A DNA stretch of 8,598 nucleotides, taken from IMG/VR virus record IMGVR_UViG_2802429224_000018; one strand, 5' to 3'. Position 1 is the first letter of the stretch. Each line of letters begins with the position of its first letter. Origin of the DNA: a virus (taxonomy: Duplodnaviria; Heunggongvirae; Uroviricota; Caudoviricetes). The notes under the pieces were generated by a model that worked only from the letters and a program-made list of their open reading frames with translations, had not been told where the DNA came from and ran no database searches. Both the position numbers and the translations under genes were made by a program. Below are positions 1 through 8,051 of the stretch, one piece after another.

Positions 1-1980
1 TTATGAATTAATTGATCGTGAAATCTCACACCAATAAACTCCATCAAATTGAAGTTCTATTCTATCAAGACCACTATTAGGGACCCAATCACCATTGAGA
101 CGCAAATTACCAGACATGTCTTTCAGGGTAACGATATCTGATGAAGTTGCAATCCCAAGAAGCAACCTTTGCCATTGCGTACCACCATTAATCGTGGTTA
201 AATCAACCCTTCCTCCAGATAAACGGTGGAATGAGCGGGTTACAGTTATTGCCCCGGAAATGACTGGTAAAGTAGTCGCTTCATTTACTTGTTTTTTTAT
301 TAGATTGACTTCTGGCTTAAGATTGCCATCTTTATCAAGAACCATTACGTCAGAAGTTCCATATCTAAACTTCAATTTATTTTCATCACTATCATCACGA
401 TATATTTTTAAACCACTAACAGTAGAATTAGCAGAATCGCCAAACTGAATAGAGCTATCTGTAGTTCCATCTGTCTGTGTTTCTGCCCTGGCACGCAATC
501 CTTTACCCTTATGCCAGACATCAAATCCACGCCAAGATGGGCCACCAACCAATATCACACTCCCCCCAGCGGAGTTCCCAATACATGAGGCATCCTTATA
601 AACTGGATCGTCTGTAAATCTGCACCCAATAAAATAAACATCGCCAGTGGTGTCATCACCAACGAACCTTGAGGTATTGGCTGTAGGGTCAGATGTGTAA
701 TCAGGAAGCTCCATCACCACACTTTGAAAAACAACATTATTGGCGCTATATAATTTTATAGCATCATTACCATACTGCTGAATTCGACCGCCTGTAATAT
801 AATGTCCATTAATAGAGAACCCACCGCCATCAATAACTAATGCCGTACTATTAAATTGTCCTGTTTGCCGAGAGTGATGGTCGTTTGCATACAAATCCCA
901 ATTATCCCATCTGGTTTCACTTAGACCGTGGCTGCCTGTTCCAAGAACTATAAATCCAACATTGCCAGACGAAGATCCGTTTATGAACTTTGTACCATCA
1001 GGGTCTGATCCATAATGAATAACCCCTGCAACTGGGAAATACCCCCACACCGTTATATTTTCGTACCTCCCCCTCGTAACATCGTTGCAGAACAGCCCAA
1101 CATCATAATTAGAACGATTATCAGATGAAATGCCTGTTAATTCCCCACTTTCATTTAAGACATCCATATCCATAACGATAGCAATATTTGTCATTGAGCG
1201 TGGTGAGCTGTCACCTGCTCCGTCTTTTACACAATAAGTAAAGCTATCGTATGGTGAACTTCTTACAGTGCTTCCTTTCGCAATACCAGTACCTGAGAAT
1301 ATTAATGTTGTCCCTGGAATTTTATTTTTGTATCCCGGCCTCAGAAATCTCTTATCGTCCTGCCAGTTTGGGAAAGCACCCATTTTAGGAGAGAATACCC
1401 CCCTCCATTCCGCTGCTTTTTTCTCAATCCCATTTGAGCATCTAAATTGACCGTGAGGAAAATATAGTGCTTTCCCATTTTGCGCACACCATTCATCAGC
1501 AGCAATTATTGCTTCCGTGTCATCAGTTATATAATCTCCTCTTGCCCCCCAAGCACGAACATCCCCCTCATCACGCCATCTTGATATCTGAAGAAGTGGA
1601 TATTTCATAACACCATCAGGATCTTCTAACTGCTGGCGAAGCTGATCCGGGTCGTACTTCAACACATTAGGGAAATAGAACTGCTGCGCCCCATATGCAT
1701 CGTACACAGCCATAGAATGTCCTTGCACAGTTACGAACTTGGCAATCTGTCCGTTATATACCGGATATCCAGCAGCGTTAATGATGATGGGTTGCGAAAC
1801 AGGAACGTGAGAACCGTCTTCGTTCTCCACATAAACCTGAATCTGGTTTTCAGGGTTTACCGGGTCAGTGTCAATTTTACCGATATAAATTTTGCCATTG
1901 GCTACGGCTTTAAAAGAACGTGCCATAGTGAAGAGTTGCGAAGGCATCGATACAATCACATTGGCTGTAATGTCTGTCAT
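1..1980 (-). CDS. Tailspike protein: P22-family capsid-binding N-terminal domain fused to a beta-helix, pectate-lyase-like receptor-binding/depolymerase domain
   Basis: 659-aa ORF, ATG at 1980-1978 with GGAG 8 nt upstream, TAA at 3-1. The first ~113 aa ([43 protein letters not shown]...VLKYDPDQ) match from memory the conserved head-binding domain of P22/Sf6/HK620-type tailspikes. Just downstream is [18 protein letters not shown]...[11 protein letters not shown], the G-x-G-D-x-x-TDDT...YFP-x-G signature typical of pectate-lyase-3-type phage depolymerases. Position as the last late gene after ant matches P22 gene 9. Confidence 0.9.
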
Positions 1981-2158: not shown

Positions 2159-3088
2159 TCAGTAGTTATGTATTGAAGGAGGTAATTCTTTATTCTTAAG
2201 TCTCATCCATGCGGAAAGATTCGTTGGTCCGTCTGGCTCATTGATATCAACATCTCGTGTGTGATTGATTAAAACGTCTCTCGCCATTCCGATAACATAC
2301 GAGAACTCATGACCATAGTCGTAGCATCTGCCGGAATAGTTCGATTGAATTTGTTTTAGCGCCGGATACAATTCGCGGAATAATGCCTGTGAGCGGTTGG
2401 CATAATCCCATAACCATACAAGACTGTTTGCTTCTTTTGCAGAAAGCTCGTTGGTTTTCTTATCTTGTTTGCCGATGAACTCTCCTTCAAGCGGAACGCG
2501 AGCAGCAAGTGACAGTGCTTCGGTAAACTGCTCCTCACTGATTTCTTTGTACGAACATCCAAAATGGGATTTCAGTGACGACCACATGGTGATCATCGCC
2601 TTAGCCTGTTTTTCTTTTGGCAGAGACTGACCGCGACTCATGACGAGTTGTTTAATGGCTTCCTGCTGTTCAGTGGTGATTTTACCCGGCAACGCCTTTT
2701 TAGCTTTGCGTGGGTTAACTACATGGCCTTTAGTCCAGTACTCGTATAGCACATCGTCACACTCTTCCTGATACTGGATTACCTTGTCGCGGATTTCAGG
2801 GCGGACTTTGTTAGGACTGATGGTTTGCAGCCAGCCAGCAAGTTTGCGAAGTGCCAAACAAATAATCTCACGGCACTGTTCATCACCAGGAAGCTGCATT
2901 GTGATTTTCACAATGGAGGTTTTAAACCGTTGCTTTATTTTCGTAAACTGTGAAGCCCAATCCATACCCATTCCCTCAACGATAGGTTTCATTGGGGTGT
3001 ACGGATCACCGTTGTGATTGACGACATAAAGCTCTGCGCCGTGGAATGGCACGTTGATAGTAGATACCGCTGTTGCTATACTTTTCAT
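2159..3088 (-). CDS. ant: Antirepressor Ant (P22 immI-type)
   Basis: 309-aa ORF, ATG at 3088-3086 with AGGAA 9 nt upstream, TGA at 2161-2159. It lies immediately downstream of an Arc-like gene and divergent from an Mnt-like gene, which is the canonical immI arrangement. The N-terminus ([23 protein letters not shown]...) is recalled as P22 Ant-like; P22 Ant is ~300 aa. Confidence 0.8.
3054..3082 (+). promoter_or_regulatory. Psar-like sigma70 promoter inside the first codons of ant, firing antisense
   Basis: TTGATA (3054-3059), a 17-bp spacer, then TATACT (3077-3082) on the plus strand. The predicted start near 3089 is directly opposite the ant start codon. Confidence 0.5.
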
Positions 3089-3160
3089 GTCAATATTTCC
3101 TAAGCCGATTTGTTGATACCGAAGCCCTGACTGTTACAGCAGTTGGGGCTTCACTGTTTT
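3089..3160 (+). ncRNA. sar: sar-like small antisense RNA complementary to the ant ribosome-binding site
   Basis: The Psar-like promoter upstream and an intrinsic terminator (hairpin 3121-3152 plus T-tract to 3160) bracket a ~70-nt transcript. It is fully complementary to the ant Shine-Dalgarno and leader (3089-3105). P22 sar is 68-69 nt with the same placement and orientation. Confidence 0.55.
3121..3160 (+). terminator. Intrinsic terminator of the sar-like RNA
   Basis: GAAGCCC (3121-3127) pairs with GGGCTTC (3146-3152); the stem can extend to ~13 bp with two G-U pairs around a 6-nt loop. It is followed by ACTGTTTTGATTTCTTT on the plus strand only; the minus-strand side is not U-rich. Confidence 0.55.
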
Positions 3161-3320
3161 GATTTCTTTGCCGCATCAAGCATCACTTCTGAAAACGTGC
3201 GCTTGCCACTGAATACTCTTTCTCTTCTCAATTTTTCGTTCGTGCCAAATGATTCGCCATGAACAAAATTTGGTCTCAAAATGGTAAGCGCAATCTCTTT
3301 GACTACTGCATCCAAGCAAA

Positions 3321-3461
3321 TCACACTGTTACCCCCTCCCTCTTCAGGCTGTCCAGCACCCGTTTAATTACTTCTGCGCTGAATGAGCGACACTCTTCCT
3401 TTGCTTTTTCTTCAAGAATTTTTTCTAGCTTCTCTGGCATACGCAGTGTTTTTACCTTCAT
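3321..3461 (-). CDS. arc: Arc-like ribbon-helix-helix repressor (46 aa); not present in the supplied ORF track
   Basis: Manual translation of the minus strand: ATG at 3461-3459 with GGAGGA 4-5 nt upstream, TGA at 3323-3321. Product is MKVKTLRMPEKLEKILEEKAKEECRSFSAEVIKRVLDSLKREGVTV, which aligns with P22 Arc as recalled (NLRWPREVLDLVRKVAEENGRSVNSEIYQRVMESFKKEG): L-R-x-P, A-x-E-x-x-R-S, E-x-x-x-R-V and K-x-E-G are conserved. It is upstream of ant and divergent from mnt. Confidence 0.8.
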   Translation of the reverse strand: MKVKTLRMPEKLEKILEEKAKEECRSFSAEVIKRVLDSLKREGVTV

Positions 3462-3480
3462 TGCATCCTCCGTTGTATGT

Positions 3481-3540
3481 GGTACGCATACATAGTATTT
3501 AGGTACGCATTGATAGTCAATAGATACCTACATATCCTGT
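3481..3540. promoter_or_regulatory. Divergent Pant/Pmnt promoter-operator region
   Basis: Minus strand (Pant): -35 TTGACT (plus 3520-3515), 17-bp spacer, -10 TACTAT (plus 3497-3492). Plus strand (Pmnt): -35 TTGATA (3510-3515), 17-bp spacer, -10 TATCCT (3533-3538). The two -35 boxes overlap within the palindromic core TTGATAGTCAA. Around it sits a 31-bp imperfect palindrome centred at 3515 (TAGGTA...TACCTA outer arms, 11 of 15 arm positions symmetric) and a 15-bp direct repeat GGTACGCATnnATAG at 3481-3495 and 3502-3516. Confidence 0.55.
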
Positions 3541-3566
3541 GGTAAAAAATTATTCAGGATGTGCCG

Positions 3567-3818
3567 ATGTCTGATCGTAAGTACAAAAACCCTCAAGTGA
3601 ATCTGAGGCTTCCTGTAGAGATAAAGGAACGTCTTATTGAACTGGCTGAGGCTAATTCTCGTTCATTAAATGCCGAGATGGTCGCGGCACTTGAAGCATG
3701 GACCGAAAAAAATAAACACATTCAAGCACTAGACCTTGCAACTATAGCATCACGATTGATAGATCTTGAACGCGATGTTGAGACGCTAAAGACCATGTAT
3801 GGTAAGGATGAAAAATGA
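3567..3818 (+). CDS. mnt: Mnt-like ribbon-helix-helix repressor (maintenance of lysogeny; represses Pant)
   Basis: ATG at 3567 with AGGA 7 nt upstream; the track's GTG at 3561 is too close to the SD. 83 aa, TGA at 3816-3818. NPQVNLRLPVEIKERLIELAEANSRSLNAEMVAALEAW aligns with P22 Mnt as recalled (PHFNFRMPMEVREKLKFRAEANGRSMNSELLQIVQDAL). Same length as P22 Mnt and divergent from arc. Confidence 0.85.
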   Translation: MSDRKYKNPQVNLRLPVEIKERLIELAEANSRSLNAEMVAALEAWTEKNKHIQALDLATIASRLIDLERDVETLKTMYGKDEK

Positions 3819-4024
3819 ACAAAAAACAGTTTATTAAGTCAACAACGTCAAGCAAGGAAGAGCTAGAGAAGGAGCTAAACTCCCTGAAATATGCTCTGTG
3901 CCTGGTTTACTCAAGACTGCCAATGGAAGATAAAAACGCCATTTACAATGAAATGATTAGCAGCCTTGATTTTAACGATAGAGACCTAGCATCCCACCTC
4001 AACAGCTTCCGCGTCCCTGAGTAA
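3815..4024 (+). CDS. Hypothetical 69-aa protein, translationally coupled to mnt
   Basis: Its ATG (3815-3817) overlaps the mnt TGA (3816-3818) in an ATGA junction; AAGGA 6 nt upstream; TAA at 4022-4024. Predicted soluble and helical; I recognise no family. Confidence 0.6.
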   Translation: MNKKQFIKSTTSSKEELEKELNSLKYALCLVYSRLPMEDKNAIYNEMISSLDFNDRDLASHLNSFRVPE

Positions 4025-4604: not shown

Positions 4605-6723
4605 GAAAAGCGACAATACCAACGCGGGCTAGATTTTTCTTCTCGTCCGCTGATAGCGTATTTACCCAATCCCTATATGGTTTCACTTTCTGCATTGAAG
4701 CATCCACCGATTTCCTAGAGGCTGGGGTGCTGGCGTGACCTGCGGCAATCCTTTTTGAGAGATTTTTAAAAGCCGGAGATGCTATTAATTCATCAGCGGC
4801 AGCCATTCTTGAGTTTTTACCAGAACGGAGGAGGCTAAAGAGTACCCCTGCCGTACCGGCTCCAGGCGCTCCAATGGCTGTGGTTAGCCCTTCTGCTTTA
4901 GCCACGTCTTTTCCTATTCCATATATACGCCCAAGCATTCCCTTCTCTCCTGCGAACTGATTCATCATCCGGTCAATTTGAGAGGAGGAATACACCTTCT
5001 CGCTGCCCACCCTTTGCATGCCAGAAGCCACCTCATAGATGTTTCTCAACCTACGCGTAGCCGGATAGCCAATTGCCCGGCTCAATGCCTGCATATTTGA
5101 TTTGTTTCTTGATAGCCCTTCATACCACTTAACAAACCCAGGAACACCAAGTGACTGCCCGGGAGATTTAGCGAACGTAGTGAAAGCCCTATTCATTGCG
5201 GTGGCAACAGCTGGTTGCACCATGTCATCAGGAAGATTTGAAACTAGGCGACGGAAGTCACCTCCCTTTCCTTGAGACATATCGACGATAGCTTGCTGTA
5301 ATTGCGGCACTATTCCTTTATCCAAGTCTCTGCCAAGATTTTGAACAGCGGCTGCCTGTACTGCGAATCTCTTTCTCCCGATCTCTCTAGCTAAATTCCA
5401 TGTATCCTCTGCACCATATTTGGCAGCAGCGGCTCCCTGATCTTGTATCAGTGCGCTTTCAATAATTCCAAGGTGCCGAGCGTCGATGCCGCTATATGGC
5501 CCTTTATCCATCTCTTTGCCAAGAGCCCTTCCAACCTGTCGTCGAACTGCATCAAGAAGACCATAAGTCGGGGCGGTGTTTGGGTCTATTTGTTCCAAGG
5601 TCTTTGACAGTTGAGGATATAGCGATTTTAGTTTTTCTAGCCCACCGACATCATCTGCAATATCCTCAATGGCGTTAGTGGTATGGGTGGTATCTACGGT
5701 AGCTCTTGTTGGAATTTTTGCTCTAATTTGATTGTATAGAGTGTCTTCTTGGCGCTTCAGGTTTGATCTTAACTCCTCATAAGAGCTTTTTACCTTTTGA
5801 TTGATAAAGTCCTTATCAACGCTCCCACCAAAATCATTAATAAATTTATCTGCCTGCTCTCCAAGCCTACTAATGGCCTCTCGCTGTGCGTGGAACAGTT
5901 TATTCCCTGGGGTTGCAGCTAAAGCATTTTCAAACGCGCGGTAAGAAGGGTTGCTGGAGTACATGCCGGGAGTTAAGGCATCTTCCATCCCAAGATTGCG
6001 GGCGGCCTGTAGCACAGAATCATCTGGTGAAACAGCTTTCGCGAGAGCATTTAAACCAGATCTGTTTCCTGTTATTGGATTCACATCTGTAGCTTTCGTT
6101 GCAACCCTCGCCATTCCACTAAGTTCAGATGCCTGAGACATTTCTGCCGATGGAGGCTTAAACCTCTTCGTAACCGCACTGGCTGCTTTGCTAATCACTG
6201 GAGATGCCAATTCAGCAATTGGACCAGCGGCAGCACCTATAGCCGCCCCTGTAGTTACATTGCCACCGGTTCCGTTAGCAACAACACCACCTTCAACAGC
6301 GCCAAGCCCTGCGGCGGCAGCCAGCCTTGCCGCCCCTTTCGGAACCTGAGAAATAATCCCACCACCACTAACAAATGGCGCTGCTTGTCCAACAAACTCA
6401 CCAACATCTTGTGCGGTTGATGGTTTTGCCGCTAACTTCTGCTGTAGAGACTGAATTGCGGCTTGCTCTTCTGGTGTCATATCCTGAAACAGGCCAACAC
6501 CTTTACCAATATCCATCAATCCACTGAGAACACCATACATAAAACGGTCGAAACCGTTAGCATTATTAACAACATTTTCCTGTCTGGAATTTTCCTCTGG
6601 CGAAACCAAAGGTGATTGCTGCTGTTCTGGTTGGGCATCAAGCACAAAACCATCAGGAAGCTGTGAGTTATCAGGCTGATTATCGAGAACAAAGCCTTCG
6701 GGTAAACCTACATCGGTTGCCAT
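4555..6723 (-). CDS. Ejection (DNA-transfer) protein, P22 gp16-like
   Basis: 722-aa ORF, ATG at 6723 with AGGAA 7 nt upstream, TAA at 4557-4555. It is the third of three consecutive late genes directly upstream of the immI module, matching the P22 order 7-20-16-(sieA)-mnt-arc-ant-9. Ala/Gly-rich internal stretches. The start overlaps the preceding gene's stop by 16 nt. Confidence 0.75.
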
Positions 6724-8051
6724 TGTCCGTTCCTGTAAATGAGTTTCTGACCAGTTTTAGGGTTCGTTGCCGTCGCGCCTTCTGATATCCCACTTGGCGC
6801 AGCTTTTGTCTGCCCATTACCACCTTGTGGTGTAGGCTGCGCTGGGACATCGTCAAATAGCTTGGCCTTCCTTCTCCCTAAGCTTTTTTTCAGCCCCTGA
6901 GGAATAGTATCTCCATACGTATCCAGATATTCGTCTACCTGCTGGTTAAACTGCTGCCCCATAGCGTTGGCGTTAATTTTTGCTGCGTTAACAATGTTAT
7001 CCCTCGCTTCCTGTGACAAGCCATTCCCTGCATTAAGCTGGTCTACATATCCTTTTATCTGCCCCCATATGCCATCAGAGCGCATAACCTGAACCTGTTC
7101 ACCTTCGCGAACAACTGACTGAGGGTCGAGAGACTTCATGTAATTAAAGATAATCCCAAGTTGGGCAGCGCCAGTATTTACCTTGCTAAGGGCTTGCAGA
7201 GAGTTTGCCGCCGCTCTGACAGAGTTATAATTTTTGCCAAAATTGGTAATGTCAGAATTTAATCCCTTAATTAAGTCTGCTGACGGCTTACCTTTTTGCC
7301 CCAGCTCCATTAGCTTCAATCCCATCTCATCTGAGTGCATTTGTGCCCGCTGAGCCCTGTCTAGTTGAGCGTTCTGGATATTTGCCCATCCTCTCGCATT
7401 CTCCATATCAGCCTGACGGATGCTTTCATCCAATCGCCCTTTCTCAAGTTGGCGACCAACCATCTTATCCTGAACAGCAAACGCCTTTTCTGGTCCAAGC
7501 GCACCGAGAGACATAGTAGTCAGCATGTGTGATAGCTGCTCTGGATTCTGAATACCTGTCTGAATCATCCAGTCAGCATTCGCCCCCACGCGATTTAACC
7601 TGTCCTTGTTATCAGTAATGAATTTACTGTAGGCTTCCGGTCCCTGAGAAAGAGCGACGTTAGCCCTCATGGCTAAATCGCCCATATCGTTGCGTTGCTG
7701 CTCATTAAGACCGGAAAACGCCTGTTGTGCCTGTGTAACAAACGCTGGATTTTCCTGGGCAAACTTAAATAGTCCCGATGGATCACCAGAAGCCCATGCA
7801 TCAGCGTGAACCTTATTGAACGCATTAATCGCTTTCTGTTGCTGTTCCTGCTTATAAATATCAGCAACTCCAGCCAGACCACGTAACGCGGTCAGACCAA
7901 CGTTATTTGCACCTGAGCGAGCCAATTCATTGTTTTCGCGGATCAGACCAAGCGTTGCGTTAATGTCGCTTGCCTTTGGCGCATTCTCATTTTGCGTACC
8001 GATGCCAGCCAGAAAACCACCAGAATTAATACCCTGTTGCCACGTAGCCAT
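6708..8051 (-). CDS. Ejection (DNA-transfer) protein, P22 gp20-like
   Basis: 447-aa ORF (P22 gp20 is ~470 aa), ATG at 8051 with AAGGGG 7 nt upstream, TAG at 6710-6708. Middle gene of the three-gene ejection cluster. Confidence 0.75.

Follow-up and report, generated by a model that had tools for sequence, protein, structure and literature searches.

A probable bidirectional control region in a non-P22 allele of the phage immunity-I module, read as a candidate tripartite ribbon-helix-helix switch

The window analysed in this study, a stretch of viral DNA 8,598 nucleotides in length, is identified by its sequence content as the immI region of a P22-like prophage. It carries a tailspike gene, ant, the sar RNA, a 46-amino-acid Arc-family gene on the minus strand and an 83-amino-acid Mnt-like gene on the plus strand (Table 1). 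This is the P22-type arrangement, in which mnt diverges from arc-ant and is accompanied by the sar antisense RNA and an adjoining tailspike gene; gene set, gene order and the homology of the repressors (Pfam Arc) are the same as in P22 immI. The assignment rests on the P22-type N-terminus of the tailspike, on ant, on the arc-like and mnt-like ORFs, on sar, and on matches to Pfam Arc and to P22 structures. The closest phages are lederbergviruses, namely CUS-3 (95.6%) and SEN22 (81%).

Table 1. Predicted features of the immI control region and its neighbourhood (positions in the window).
Feature	Position	Strand	Basis or remark
sar antisense RNA of the ant ribosome-binding site	3090..3155	+	Rfam RF00262, 62.1 bits (gathering score 43), E=2.7e-11
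Arc-like ribbon-helix-helix gene, 46 aa, MKVKTLRMPE...	3321..3461	-	ORF; first gene of arc-ant operon
Shine-Dalgarno GGAGGA of arc-like gene	3466..3471	-	sequence; 4 nt ahead of ATG at 3461
19-bp palindrome TGTATGtGgtaCgCATACA around site 1 at Pant start	3474..3492		terminator scan: 8-pair stem
Site 1, GGTACGCAT	3481..3489	+	covers predicted Pant start; consensus GGTAYGCAT across relatives
Pant -10 TACTAT	3492..3497	-	promoter scan; identical to P22 Pant hexamer; 17 bp from -35
Imperfect palindrome centred on 3515	3496..3534		site 2 and site 3 around two -35 hexamers
Site 2, GGTACGCAT	3502..3510	+	inside Pant spacer, abuts Pmnt -35; exact copy
Pmnt -35 TTGATA	3510..3515	+	promoter scan
Pant -35 TTGACT	3520..3515	-	promoter scan; base 3515 common to Pmnt -35
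Site 3, ATAGATACCTAC	3520..3531		inside Pmnt spacer; consensus TAGrTAYsYAC
Possible hairpin CATATCCTG (3531-3539) with CAGGATGTG (3555-3563)	3531..3563	+	inverted repeat; would hide mnt ribosome-binding site
Pmnt -10 TATCCT	3533..3538	+	promoter scan; 17 bp from -35
Mnt-like repressor gene, 83 aa, MSDRKYKNPQVNLRLP...	3567..3818	+	ORF; ribbon-helix-helix domain plus C-terminal helix

A preliminary description of this DNA had called the two divergent genes Arc-like and Mnt-like, and these identities hold. Both products match Pfam Arc (PF03869) above its curated cut-off (E=3.4e-8 for the Arc-like and E=3.1e-10 for the Mnt-like protein), and so both fit the profile of ribbon-helix-helix (Arc/MetJ) repressors, an N-terminal β-strand followed by two helices. 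The sar RNA adjoins ant, with a promoter-like site at 3054-3082 and a terminator hairpin at 3121-3152. A PDB search with the Arc-like protein finds P22 Arc structures, and in E. coli ISHS7 its gene is labelled by PGAP as encoding an Arc family DNA-binding protein. The ATG start of the mnt-like gene is backed by PGAP and by relatives without an upstream GTG. The top PDB match of its product is P22 Mnt (1mnt, E=3e-5), covering residues 8-52 only; the two proteins are 33% identical, and no sequence match to the C-terminal domain of P22 Mnt is detectable in the PDB search. A helix is predicted at residues 57-78 in a single-sequence AlphaFold model of low confidence (mean pLDDT 71), and the sequence there places L57, I60, L64, L67, V71 and L74 at a hydrophobic spacing of 3-4 residues, a pattern that fits a tethering domain. 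The Pant operon is predicted to comprise the arc-like gene, a small ORF and ant, and the Pmnt operon the mnt-like gene.

The two operons would be served by sigma-70 promoters in opposite directions. As first described, their -35 boxes lie back to back and overlap: TTGATA on the plus strand and TTGACT on the minus strand share a single base, 3515, and each has a -10-like hexamer 17 bp away. Pant and Pmnt are the sole consensus matches on their strands within the intergenic region in the promoter scan, and their transcripts are predicted to start near 3485 (Pant, minus strand) and near 3545 (Pmnt, plus strand), approximately 60 bp apart.

These promoter calls, including the back-to-back placement, are supported by the pattern of variation among 32 non-redundant relatives, which range from E. 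coli to Photorhabdus and Arsenophonus. Pmnt follows TTGnnn-17-TAnnnT, in which the first, second and sixth bases of the -10 hexamer (T3533, A3534 and T3538) are invariant in 32/32, and this TAnnnT persists even where the leaders are long and unrelated. The inner and flanking positions 3532, 3535, 3539 and 3541-3543 each carry less than 0.4 bits, and conservation collapses past 3538. The Pant hexamers behave alike, following TTGACT-17-TAnTAT, with variation within the -10 at position 3 only. Where the two -35 boxes meet, the TTG of Pmnt (3510-3512), which belonged to the alignment anchor and is found in 75 of 77 loci, is fixed, as is GTCAA (3516-3520), found in 75/77 distinct upstream regions. 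The last three bases of the Pmnt -35 box, 3513-3515, are variable, as evident by the versions TTGCTAGTCAA, TTGTTAGTCAA, TTGCTCGTCAA and TTGAATGTCAA.

Conservation is not confined to the promoter hexamers. A 65-bp core is ~83% identical (mostly 80-94%) among relatives found in E. coli, Salmonella, Xenorhabdus, Photorhabdus, Arsenophonus and Chimaeribacter; the corresponding values are ~63% for the adjacent Mnt-like coding DNA and ~39% for third codon positions. At the sequence level, this comparison demonstrates strong purifying selection on the core, with promoter-like and operator-like patterns of variation.

The preliminary description had placed 15-bp direct repeats on either side of a 31-bp palindrome. 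The repeats are real, in that GGTACGCATacATAG (3481-3495) and GGTACGCATtgATAG (3502-3516) agree at 13/15 positions with a start-to-start distance of 21 bp, the likeness extends to 16/21 (3481-3501 versus 3502-3522), and GGTACGCAT occurs in exact copies (9/9) at 3481 and 3502. Among 1000 dinucleotide shuffles of the 105-bp intergenic region, 1/1000 reached 16/21 and 28/1000 contained an exact 9-mer repeat. However, the palindrome is not flanked by them, as its left arm is itself the second repeat copy. The palindrome, TAGGTAcgcaTTGAtagTCAAtagaTACCTA (3500-3530), is likewise present but imperfect; the repeat finder gives it 18-nt arms (3496-3513 and 3517-3534) that are complementary at 14/18 positions (78%) around a 3-nt centre, a value reached in 6/1000 dinucleotide shuffles. 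By hand count, the arms match at 17/18 positions in Photorhabdus temperata (L009) and at 13/18 in L010.

Read by sequence, the direct repeats and the palindrome are one and the same thing, namely three copies of GGTAYGYAT whose GTAC/ATAC cores are 21 bp apart. The core centres fall at 3483.5, 3504.5 and 3525.5, so that each step covers two helical turns and all three copies present the same DNA face. The earlier placement of the repeats two turns apart is supported, and a third copy is added to them. In site 2, none of the 32 representatives departs from T3504, A3505, G3507 or A3509, and C is found at 3509 in one further lineage (L403 and L405). Site 3 is the least conserved of the three and is degenerate in the window's lineage, where its best reading is GGTATCTAT on the minus strand (3528..3520, one mismatch) and its plus-strand reading is GATACCTAC (3523-3531). 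It is direct in other lineages (GGTACGCAC, GGTACGCAT or GGTATGTAC), and L321 carries three good direct copies, GGTACGCAT, GGTATGCAT and GGTACGCAT, at 21-bp steps. The spacing is shifted by 1 bp in three lineages (L022, L047 and L088).

Over the whole window, the motif with one mismatch is matched 8 times where 5 matches are expected, an excess without significance; the relevant feature is that three copies are gathered within 50 bp. When GGTAYGYAT-N12-GGTAYGYAT was scanned for in other contexts, this control region was the sole result besides chance matches in coding repeats. We read the three copies as putative operators because the conservation of the promoter spacers and of the Pant start, which RNA polymerase does not need, falls on them. 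The half-sites TAGGTA and TACCTA suggested earlier must be replaced by GGTAYGYAT, since the bases before GG vary and the CGCAT that they omit is conserved.

Comparison with P22 reveals shared components in a different layout. Pant is TTGACn-17-TACTAT in both (TTGACA-17-TACTAT in P22, TTGACT-17-TACTAT at 3520..3492 in the window), and both have a palindrome at the Pant start and a conserved element in the Pant spacer. In P22, as taken from the annotation of X01916, which is marked 'potential', the Pmnt -10 overlies the Pant -35 and the starts are ~37 bp apart, whereas the window has back-to-back -35 boxes and starts ~60 bp apart. We rejected a P22-style placement of Pmnt in the window: at the equivalent place the plus strand reads GATAGT, the key second base of which, A3513, is variable (C in 6/32, T in 1/32), and the hexamers are poor.

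The operators differ as well. P22 has two unrelated ones, the 17-bp mnt operator GGTCCACGGTGGACC and an arc operator of 21 bp whose TAGA boxes are inverted, whereas in the window one 9-mer recurs at 21-bp steps in three copies. The sequence of the mnt operator, which in P22 lies just past the Pant start, is absent; a different 19-bp palindrome lies in the equivalent place, with conserved arms TGTAT and ATACA (1.2-1.8 bits), the left of which is replaced in the L094 lineage. A search for a P22-type arc operator found no TCTA and no inverted TAGA pair in 3470-3545, and the Pant spacer carries GGTACGCAT. ATAG boxes were also considered as Arc-type TAGA boxes and rejected: all are direct, G3495 varies (G in 20, T in 7), and replacement of the third box by ACAC, ACAT or ATAC in some lineages counts against that reading. 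The preliminary description correctly named TAGGT as a half-site of the P22 mnt operator, which reads TAGGTCCACGGTGGACCTG. The likeness that it saw extends to 6/8 bases of one half-site (AGGTACGC versus AGGTCCAC) but not to the arrangement, because the P22 operator has adjacent inverted halves and the window a 21-bp spacing.

Three related sites, about two helical turns apart and laid over two divergent promoters, recall the OR region of phage lambda. There, OR1, OR2 and OR3 are related sites ~two turns apart between PR and PRM. One promoter is overlapped by two of the sites, while the other has the middle site against its -35 box and the third site within it, an arrangement that allows one promoter to be repressed and the other to be autoregulated. 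The window has the same three-site arrangement over its divergent promoters. The components are different: lambda uses 17-bp palindromes, helix-turn-helix dimers and -35 boxes that do not overlap, whereas the window has asymmetric 9-bp motifs, presumably ribbon-helix-helix dimers, and overlapping -35 boxes.

We infer that the three motif copies are ribbon-helix-helix repressor sites that form a lambda-OR-like tripartite switch. Overall, bases 3474-3540 are probably, with a confidence somewhat above even, a bidirectional control region of this kind in a non-P22 allele of the immunity-I (immI) module. Each copy would bind one ribbon-helix-helix dimer. The Mnt-like protein, by means of its C-terminal heptad helix, should be a tetramer of two dimers, and in the assignment that we favour it would clamp the identical sites 1 and 2. 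With these sites occupied, Pant would be shut and the antirepressor kept off in the lysogen, leaving the Pmnt -10 free. Site 3, weaker and inverted in the window's lineage, would fill only at higher repressor levels and provide negative autoregulation; alternatively, the Arc-like protein may fill it and shut both promoters, as P22 Arc does. The one hint of graded affinities is the low conservation of site 3 and its degeneracy in the window's lineage. Binding of protein to the three sites, its cooperativity and the assignment of proteins to sites are all put forward here as inferred parts of the model.

This model makes a structural demand on the Mnt-like protein. Two dimers placed 21 bp apart would be farther from each other than in any Arc or Mnt complex known to us, so the tetramer would need a long reach. 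The NikR tetramer, which holds two ribbon-helix-helix dimers apart on half-sites separated by a ~16 bp spacer, offers a precedent for a tethered dimer pair spanning ~21 bp. However, the half-sites of NikR are inverted, unlike the direct repeats of sites 1 and 2, and NikR possesses a large metal-binding domain at its centre, in place of which the Mnt-like protein offers no more than a helix of ~25 residues.

Several observations link the motif to the Mnt-like protein: its near-invariant reading strand, the 6/8 bases shared with the P22 half-site, its C-terminal helix and the locus L196. Every motif-bearing locus has essentially the same DNA-reading strand, Y[KR][NH]PQVNLRLP, apart from rare variants that end in RIP, RMP or RLS. 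L196 has an mnt-like gene without arc or ant; it has lost the Pant -35 and keeps GGTACGTGT beside the -35 and GGTATATATAC further upstream. It is a single case, in which the retained motif matches are individually not significant. Because the motif is always accompanied by both the Arc-like and the Mnt-like gene, the comparison cannot tell which of the two proteins reads it. A metagenome scan for loci with one repressor only found every Arc-like relative with enough sequence paired with a PQVNLR protein, and L196 is the sole mnt-only locus found, to which a second, protein-based scan added none. Furthermore, the reading residues of the Mnt-like protein are Q, N and R, identical to P22 Arc and in agreement with the Arc F10V variant, whereas P22 Mnt has H, N and R; the likeness of the motif to the P22 mnt operator may therefore be coincidental.

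Additional elements lie at the edges of the region. The arms of the possible leader hairpin have a different sequence yet are still complementary in other lineages, and the folding z is below -1.5 in 15/38 leaders. The left arm of this recurrent hairpin overlaps the Pmnt -10, which would make sense if some mnt transcripts began upstream of the predicted start. At the other edge, the 19-bp palindrome and the conserved TGTAT (3474-3478) are left unexplained by a simple three-site model.

An alternative that gives this palindrome a role is a P22-like division of labour, in which the Mnt-like tetramer would bind TGTATGTGGTACGCATACA (3474-3492) and the Arc-like protein the palindrome at 3515, where occupation of site 2 and the inverted site 3 would cover both -35 boxes and shut both promoters. 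The positions agree with P22, whose mnt operator follows directly on the Pant start and whose arc operator falls within the Pant promoter. The P22 logic, by which Mnt represses Pant alone and Arc represses Pant and Pmnt alike (PMC2724298), would be reproduced. The 19-bp palindrome has 7/9 symmetric pairs and conserved outer arms; the central palindrome is significant by shuffles and nearly perfect in L009, and the window's third motif is best read inverted. However, sites 1 and 2 are identical (9/9), and two different proteins would have to read one 9-mer. Moreover, many lineages have a direct site 3 with a palindrome of only 13/18, the TGTAT arm is lost from the L094 lineage, and a 46-amino-acid dimer cannot make contact across 21 bp, which leaves cooperative binding by the Arc-like protein hard to explain. 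We regard this division as unlikely. A CI/Cro-style bistable switch built from ribbon-helix-helix parts, in which both repressors would read all three GTAC-core sites with opposite orders of preference, is quite unlikely. The Mnt-like tetramer would then bridge sites 1 and 2 over two helical turns, with possible stimulation of Pmnt from site 2; sites 2 and 3 would be the first to be taken by the Arc-like dimer, and a promoter-specific hairpin would permit mnt translation only from transcripts started at Pmnt. We know of no description of such bridging across two helical turns for Arc or Mnt proteins. No co-variation was found between the Arc-like reading-strand classes (KVKT[LMI]R[MVI]P versus P[SV][ST]VR[FM]P) and operator bases, especially G/T at 3495, as evident by the fact that both classes occur with both bases there (L022, L027 and L402).

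Two further explanations dispense with the motif copies as the main operators. The preliminary description proposed that one bound protein could switch both promoters from their shared palindromic core, TTGATAGTCAA, in which TTGA and TCAA are indeed present around a 3-bp centre, but no more symmetry than that. The core ATTGAtagTCAAT is a 5+5 palindrome with the size of the 13-bp CopG-type element. Few stretches are better conserved, and both -35 boxes would be blocked by a protein bound to it. If it were the operator, with the flanking repeats secondary, its symmetry should matter; instead, A3513 changes to C or T in 7/32 while its partner T3517 never changes, and 3514-3515 vary too. The fixed TTG and GTCAA are just what the two -35 hexamers require and can be explained by these alone. 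A core operator, which would not account for how strongly the spacers and the Pant start are conserved, is very unlikely. Lastly, the conservation might have nothing to do with regulation and stem from recent horizontal spread or from a recombination linker, in the sense of a 'boundary sequence' that joins mosaic modules. Mosaic joints are seen nearby, and in the CUS-3 record the interval 6505-6986, which takes in the arc-like gene and the greater part of the intergenic region, bears the label 'bsq2; boundary sequence'. However, position-specific patterns like that of TAnnnT, where the bases within and around the fixed ones are free, are not expected of a linker. In addition, the block has stayed conserved in such distant genera as Photorhabdus and Arsenophonus, where synonymous sites are saturated, and the flanking genes encode ribbon-helix-helix repressors that need operators. 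We consider this explanation extremely improbable.

The immI allele that carries this control region is common. A 498-bp query matched, partly or fully, 304/5426 complete E. coli genomes, with at least 80% of the query matched in 116. A literature search found no paper on this allele and no experimental test of the control region. The arc-like gene described here corrects a published inference that CUS-3-type phages are without an arc gene.

The immI region of P22 is the textbook system for ribbon-helix-helix repressors, and to our knowledge P22's is the only immI allele dissected so far. By its sequence, the present allele meets the same regulatory problem as P22 with different wiring, using back-to-back promoters and three copies of one motif at intervals of two helical turns. 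Should this be confirmed, the allele would show in a compact, well-delimited natural setting how homologous repressors and their promoters come to be rewired. Long-reach binding by a tethered ribbon-helix-helix tetramer could be tested on it, and it would supply a small, portable bidirectional switch.

The region between the two small regulatory genes of this virus is the 105-bp gap separating the arc-like and mnt-like genes of an immI module, the immunity-I module of phage P22 that consists of mnt, the divergent arc-ant and the sar RNA. This placement follows from the gene set and sar RNA (see table), from protein matches, from kinship with lederbergviruses and from existing annotation. DNA-injection genes lie beyond the mnt-like gene in the ORF list. 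The 83-aa mnt-like protein is 33% identical to P22 Mnt, with 1mnt as its top PDB match, and the 46-aa arc-like protein matches P22 Arc structures in the PDB. Among phages, the lederbergviruses CUS-3 (95.6% over 3331-3802) and SEN22 (81%) come closest. In E. coli prophages, PGAP calls both small genes Arc family DNA-binding proteins and starts the mnt-like gene at the ATG at 3567.

Coordinates of genes, RNA elements, predicted transcription starts and motif copies
Feature	Position	Strand	Basis or remark
Tailspike with P22-type head-binding N-terminus	1..1980	-	ORF list
Antirepressor gene (ant)	2159..3088	-	ORF list
sar promoter-like site, TTGATA-17-TATACT with upstream TG	3054-3082		Within first codons of ant
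sar antisense RNA, complete	3090-3155		Rfam RF00262, 62.1 bits vs gathering score 43
sar terminator hairpin	3121-3152
arc-like, 46-aa ORF	3321..3461	-	ORF list; Pfam Arc PF03869 E=3.4e-8
Site 1	3481-3489
Pant predicted start	near 3485	-	Leader ~24 nt to arc-like ATG
Site 2	3502-3510
Site 3	3520-3531
Pmnt predicted start	near 3545	+	~22 nt upstream of mnt-like ATG
AGGA of mnt-like leader	3556-3559
mnt-like, 83-aa ORF	3567..3818	+	ORF list; Pfam Arc PF03869 E=3.1e-10

Between the arc-like gene and ant lies a 57-aa ORF (3151-3324, minus strand) with no Pfam match, whose GTG start and the stop codon of the arc-like gene overlap (GTGA). An ORF of this size is annotated behind a different arc in phiv205-1, the E. 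coli ISHS7 prophage lacks it, and a Cys-rich ORF replaces it in CUS-3; the position looks like a swappable small cassette. A mosaic joint occurs at ~3802, within the final codons of the mnt-like gene, where similarity to CUS-3 stops and similarity to the Emek and Kapi1 phages starts (3802-3803), covering the next ORF (3815-4024). In one viral contig (L140 865-1000) this mnt-like gene immediately follows another, different mnt-type gene and lacks its own promoter-operator region, and CUS-3 has a tandem pair of mnt genes (L001 2737-3266). It seems that mnt genes are shuffled as cassettes.

The direct repeats, palindrome and overlapping back-to-back −35 boxes reported in the preliminary description are all present. 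GGTACGCAT occurs at 3481 and 3502, and at this 21-bp offset the match grows to 13/15 and 16/21. The palindrome is imperfect, centred at 3515, with 14 of 18 nt matching between its arms. Among 1000 dinucleotide-preserving shuffles of the intergenic region, the observed value was reached by one for the 16/21 repeat, by 28 for the exact 9-mer repeat and by six for the palindrome. TTGATA (plus strand, 3510-3515) and TTGACT (minus strand, 3520..3515) share base 3515, and both are followed at 17 bp by a −10-like hexamer. The repeats do not flank the palindrome as had been described, because the second copy is its left arm; the proposed palindromic core TTGATAGTCAA amounts to no more than TTGA/TCAA with three unpaired bases between them.

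Relatives were collected by a protein-based scan of species-representative genomes, by DNA-pattern and protein-based scans of viral contigs, and by an Arc-based scan of metagenomes. Several dozen different forms of the region were reduced to 32 representatives by removing near-duplicates; hosts include E. coli, Salmonella, Xenorhabdus, Photorhabdus, Arsenophonus, Phlomobacter and Chimaeribacter. Relative to the window, the Mnt-like coding DNA averages 63% identity, with third codon positions near saturation (39%), whereas the 65-bp core (3474-3538) averages 83%, mostly 80-94% without indels, which points to strong purifying selection on this non-coding DNA. One scan was keyed on the 15-mer ATTGATAGTCAATAG and is biased accordingly; of the 77 distinct upstream regions in the protein-derived sets, 75 contain TTGnnnGTCAA.

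The per-column conservation profile of the 32 representatives was most informative. T3533, A3534 and T3538 are invariant (32/32), while positions 3532, 3535, 3539 and 3541-3543 fall below 0.4 bits and conservation stops at 3538. The plus-strand hexamer takes the forms TATCCT, TATTCT, TAATCT, TACTAT, TAGACT, TAATAT, TACTCT, TACCAT and others, always as TAnnnT exactly 17 bp past TTGnnn, a pattern that reads as the signature of a −10 element. Its minus-strand counterpart is TACTAT or TAATAT, varying at the third base alone, and an invariant TTGAC stands 17 bp away from it, or 16-18 bp in three lineages. In the shared core, 3513-3515 vary and TTG and GTCAA are fixed. Together, the invariant −10 positions, the 17-bp spacers and this core support both predicted promoters, Pant and Pmnt, in the back-to-back arrangement first proposed.

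The Pmnt −10 assignment carries a real caveat. CATATCCTG (3531-3539), which overlaps this element, is complementary to CAGGATGTG (3555-3563), which spans the ribosome-binding site. The arms differ in sequence in other lineages, with complementarity kept (TATCCTG/CAGGATA, ACATATTCT/AGAATATGT, CTTAATCT/AGATTAAG, CTCTATA/TATAGAG and CCTGTAAA/TTTACGGG). On the plus strand the wobble pairs read U-G, and 15 of 38 distinct leaders fold with z < -1.5 versus shuffles. Because the left arm is upstream of the predicted start and missing from a transcript begun at 3545, this hairpin could silence mnt translation solely on plus-strand transcripts started further upstream; alternatively, the true Pmnt start is upstream of ~3545. 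We keep the predicted −10 element because TAnnnT is invariant also in lineages that lack the hairpin.

Conservation exceeds the needs of RNA polymerase in three blocks (3481-3491, 3502-3509 and 3521-3531), which align in 21-bp steps to give GGTAYGYAT. The best match of site 3 in the window is on the minus strand, where GGTATCTAT (3528..3520) has one mismatch, and this match is exactly the palindrome. In many other lineages site 3 is direct (GGTACGCAC, GGTACGCAT or GGTATGTAC); locus L321 has three good direct copies, and in Photorhabdus temperata (L009) GGTACC reads both ways, giving a 17/18 palindrome. With GTAC/ATAC cores at 3483.5, 3504.5 and 3525.5, spacing is 21.0 bp in either reading of site 3, and the repeats and palindrome are therefore two views of one array. 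The half-site TAGGTA suggested earlier does not describe this motif, as the TA before GG varies and the omitted CGCAT is conserved. Site 1 lies over the predicted Pant start, site 2 occupies the Pant spacer and contacts the Pmnt −35, and site 3 occupies the Pmnt spacer, 2 bp past the Pant −35.

Comparison alone cannot assign these sites to a repressor, because arc-like and mnt-like genes always co-occur in metagenome loci and no protein-DNA co-variation was found across relatives. Wherever the motif occurs, the reading strand of the Mnt-like protein hardly departs from Y[KR][NH]PQVNLRLP (rare endings RIP, RMP and RLS). Arc-like strands belong to either a KVKT[LMI]R[MVI]P or a P[SV][ST]VR[FM]P class, both retaining a hydroxyl residue and an arginine at presumed base-contacting positions. 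Weak arguments favour the Mnt-like protein as reader of at least sites 1 and 2. The motif and the P22 Mnt half-site have 6 of 8 bases in common (AGGTACGC versus AGGTCCAC). Dimers of the 46-aa protein cannot span the 21 bp to a neighbour, and the predicted C-terminal helix of the Mnt-like protein (57-78, hydrophobic spacing 3-4) could tether two dimers. L196, the single locus with an mnt-like gene but neither arc nor ant, has lost the Pant −35 and keeps motif-like copies around its own −35. Against this assignment, the Mnt-like protein shares its contact residues Q, N and R with P22 Arc, and its strand is identical to that of the Arc F10V variant. The main rival, which we consider unlikely, retains the P22 division of labour, with the Mnt-like protein on TGTATGTGGTACGCATACA, a palindrome of 19 bp located at the Pant start, and the Arc-like protein on the central palindrome.

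A literature search found no study of this immI allele. The epsilon-34 genome paper of 2008 described CUS-3 as apparently without arc, with ant control possibly different (PMC2629481). In fact, CUS-3 (CP000711) carries an arc gene: an intact 46-aa Arc-family ORF (MKVKTLRMPE...GVMV; L001 2504-2644, equivalent to window 3321-3461), unannotated within a 'bsq2 boundary sequence' feature and annotated by PGAP in E. coli genomes. In the P22 record, a putative Pmnt −10 (307-312) lies over the Pant −35 (302-307), with the Pmnt −35 directly next to the Pant −10; unlike P22, the plus strand of the window reads GATAGT at the equivalent place, with its critical second base variable. Since the superimposed promoters, arc operator and mnt operator of P22 are not found here, we rate the region as a variant of immI with a layout other than P22's.

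An Armatimonadia MAG (L012 1350-1500), from a very different host, encodes a distant relative with reading strand DPQFKLRLP and two to three upstream copies of GGACCACCGTGGTCC, similar to the P22 mnt operator GGTCCACGGTGGACC. In another relative, from Proteus (L013 and L014 1350-1500), palindromes TGTGACATCACA and TGTGATATCACA flank a divergent TTGACT pair, boxes 8 bp apart, giving the same general plan of back-to-back −35 boxes and repeated operator copies with an unrelated motif.

The layout of sites 1-3 parallels the OR1-OR2-OR3 arrangement of lambda. In the switch that we propose, the Mnt-like tetramer would clamp sites 1 and 2, and their occupancy would turn Pant off while leaving the Pmnt −10 free. 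Site 3 would then serve autoregulation, or the Arc-like protein bound there would turn off both promoters, as P22 Arc does (PMC2724298).
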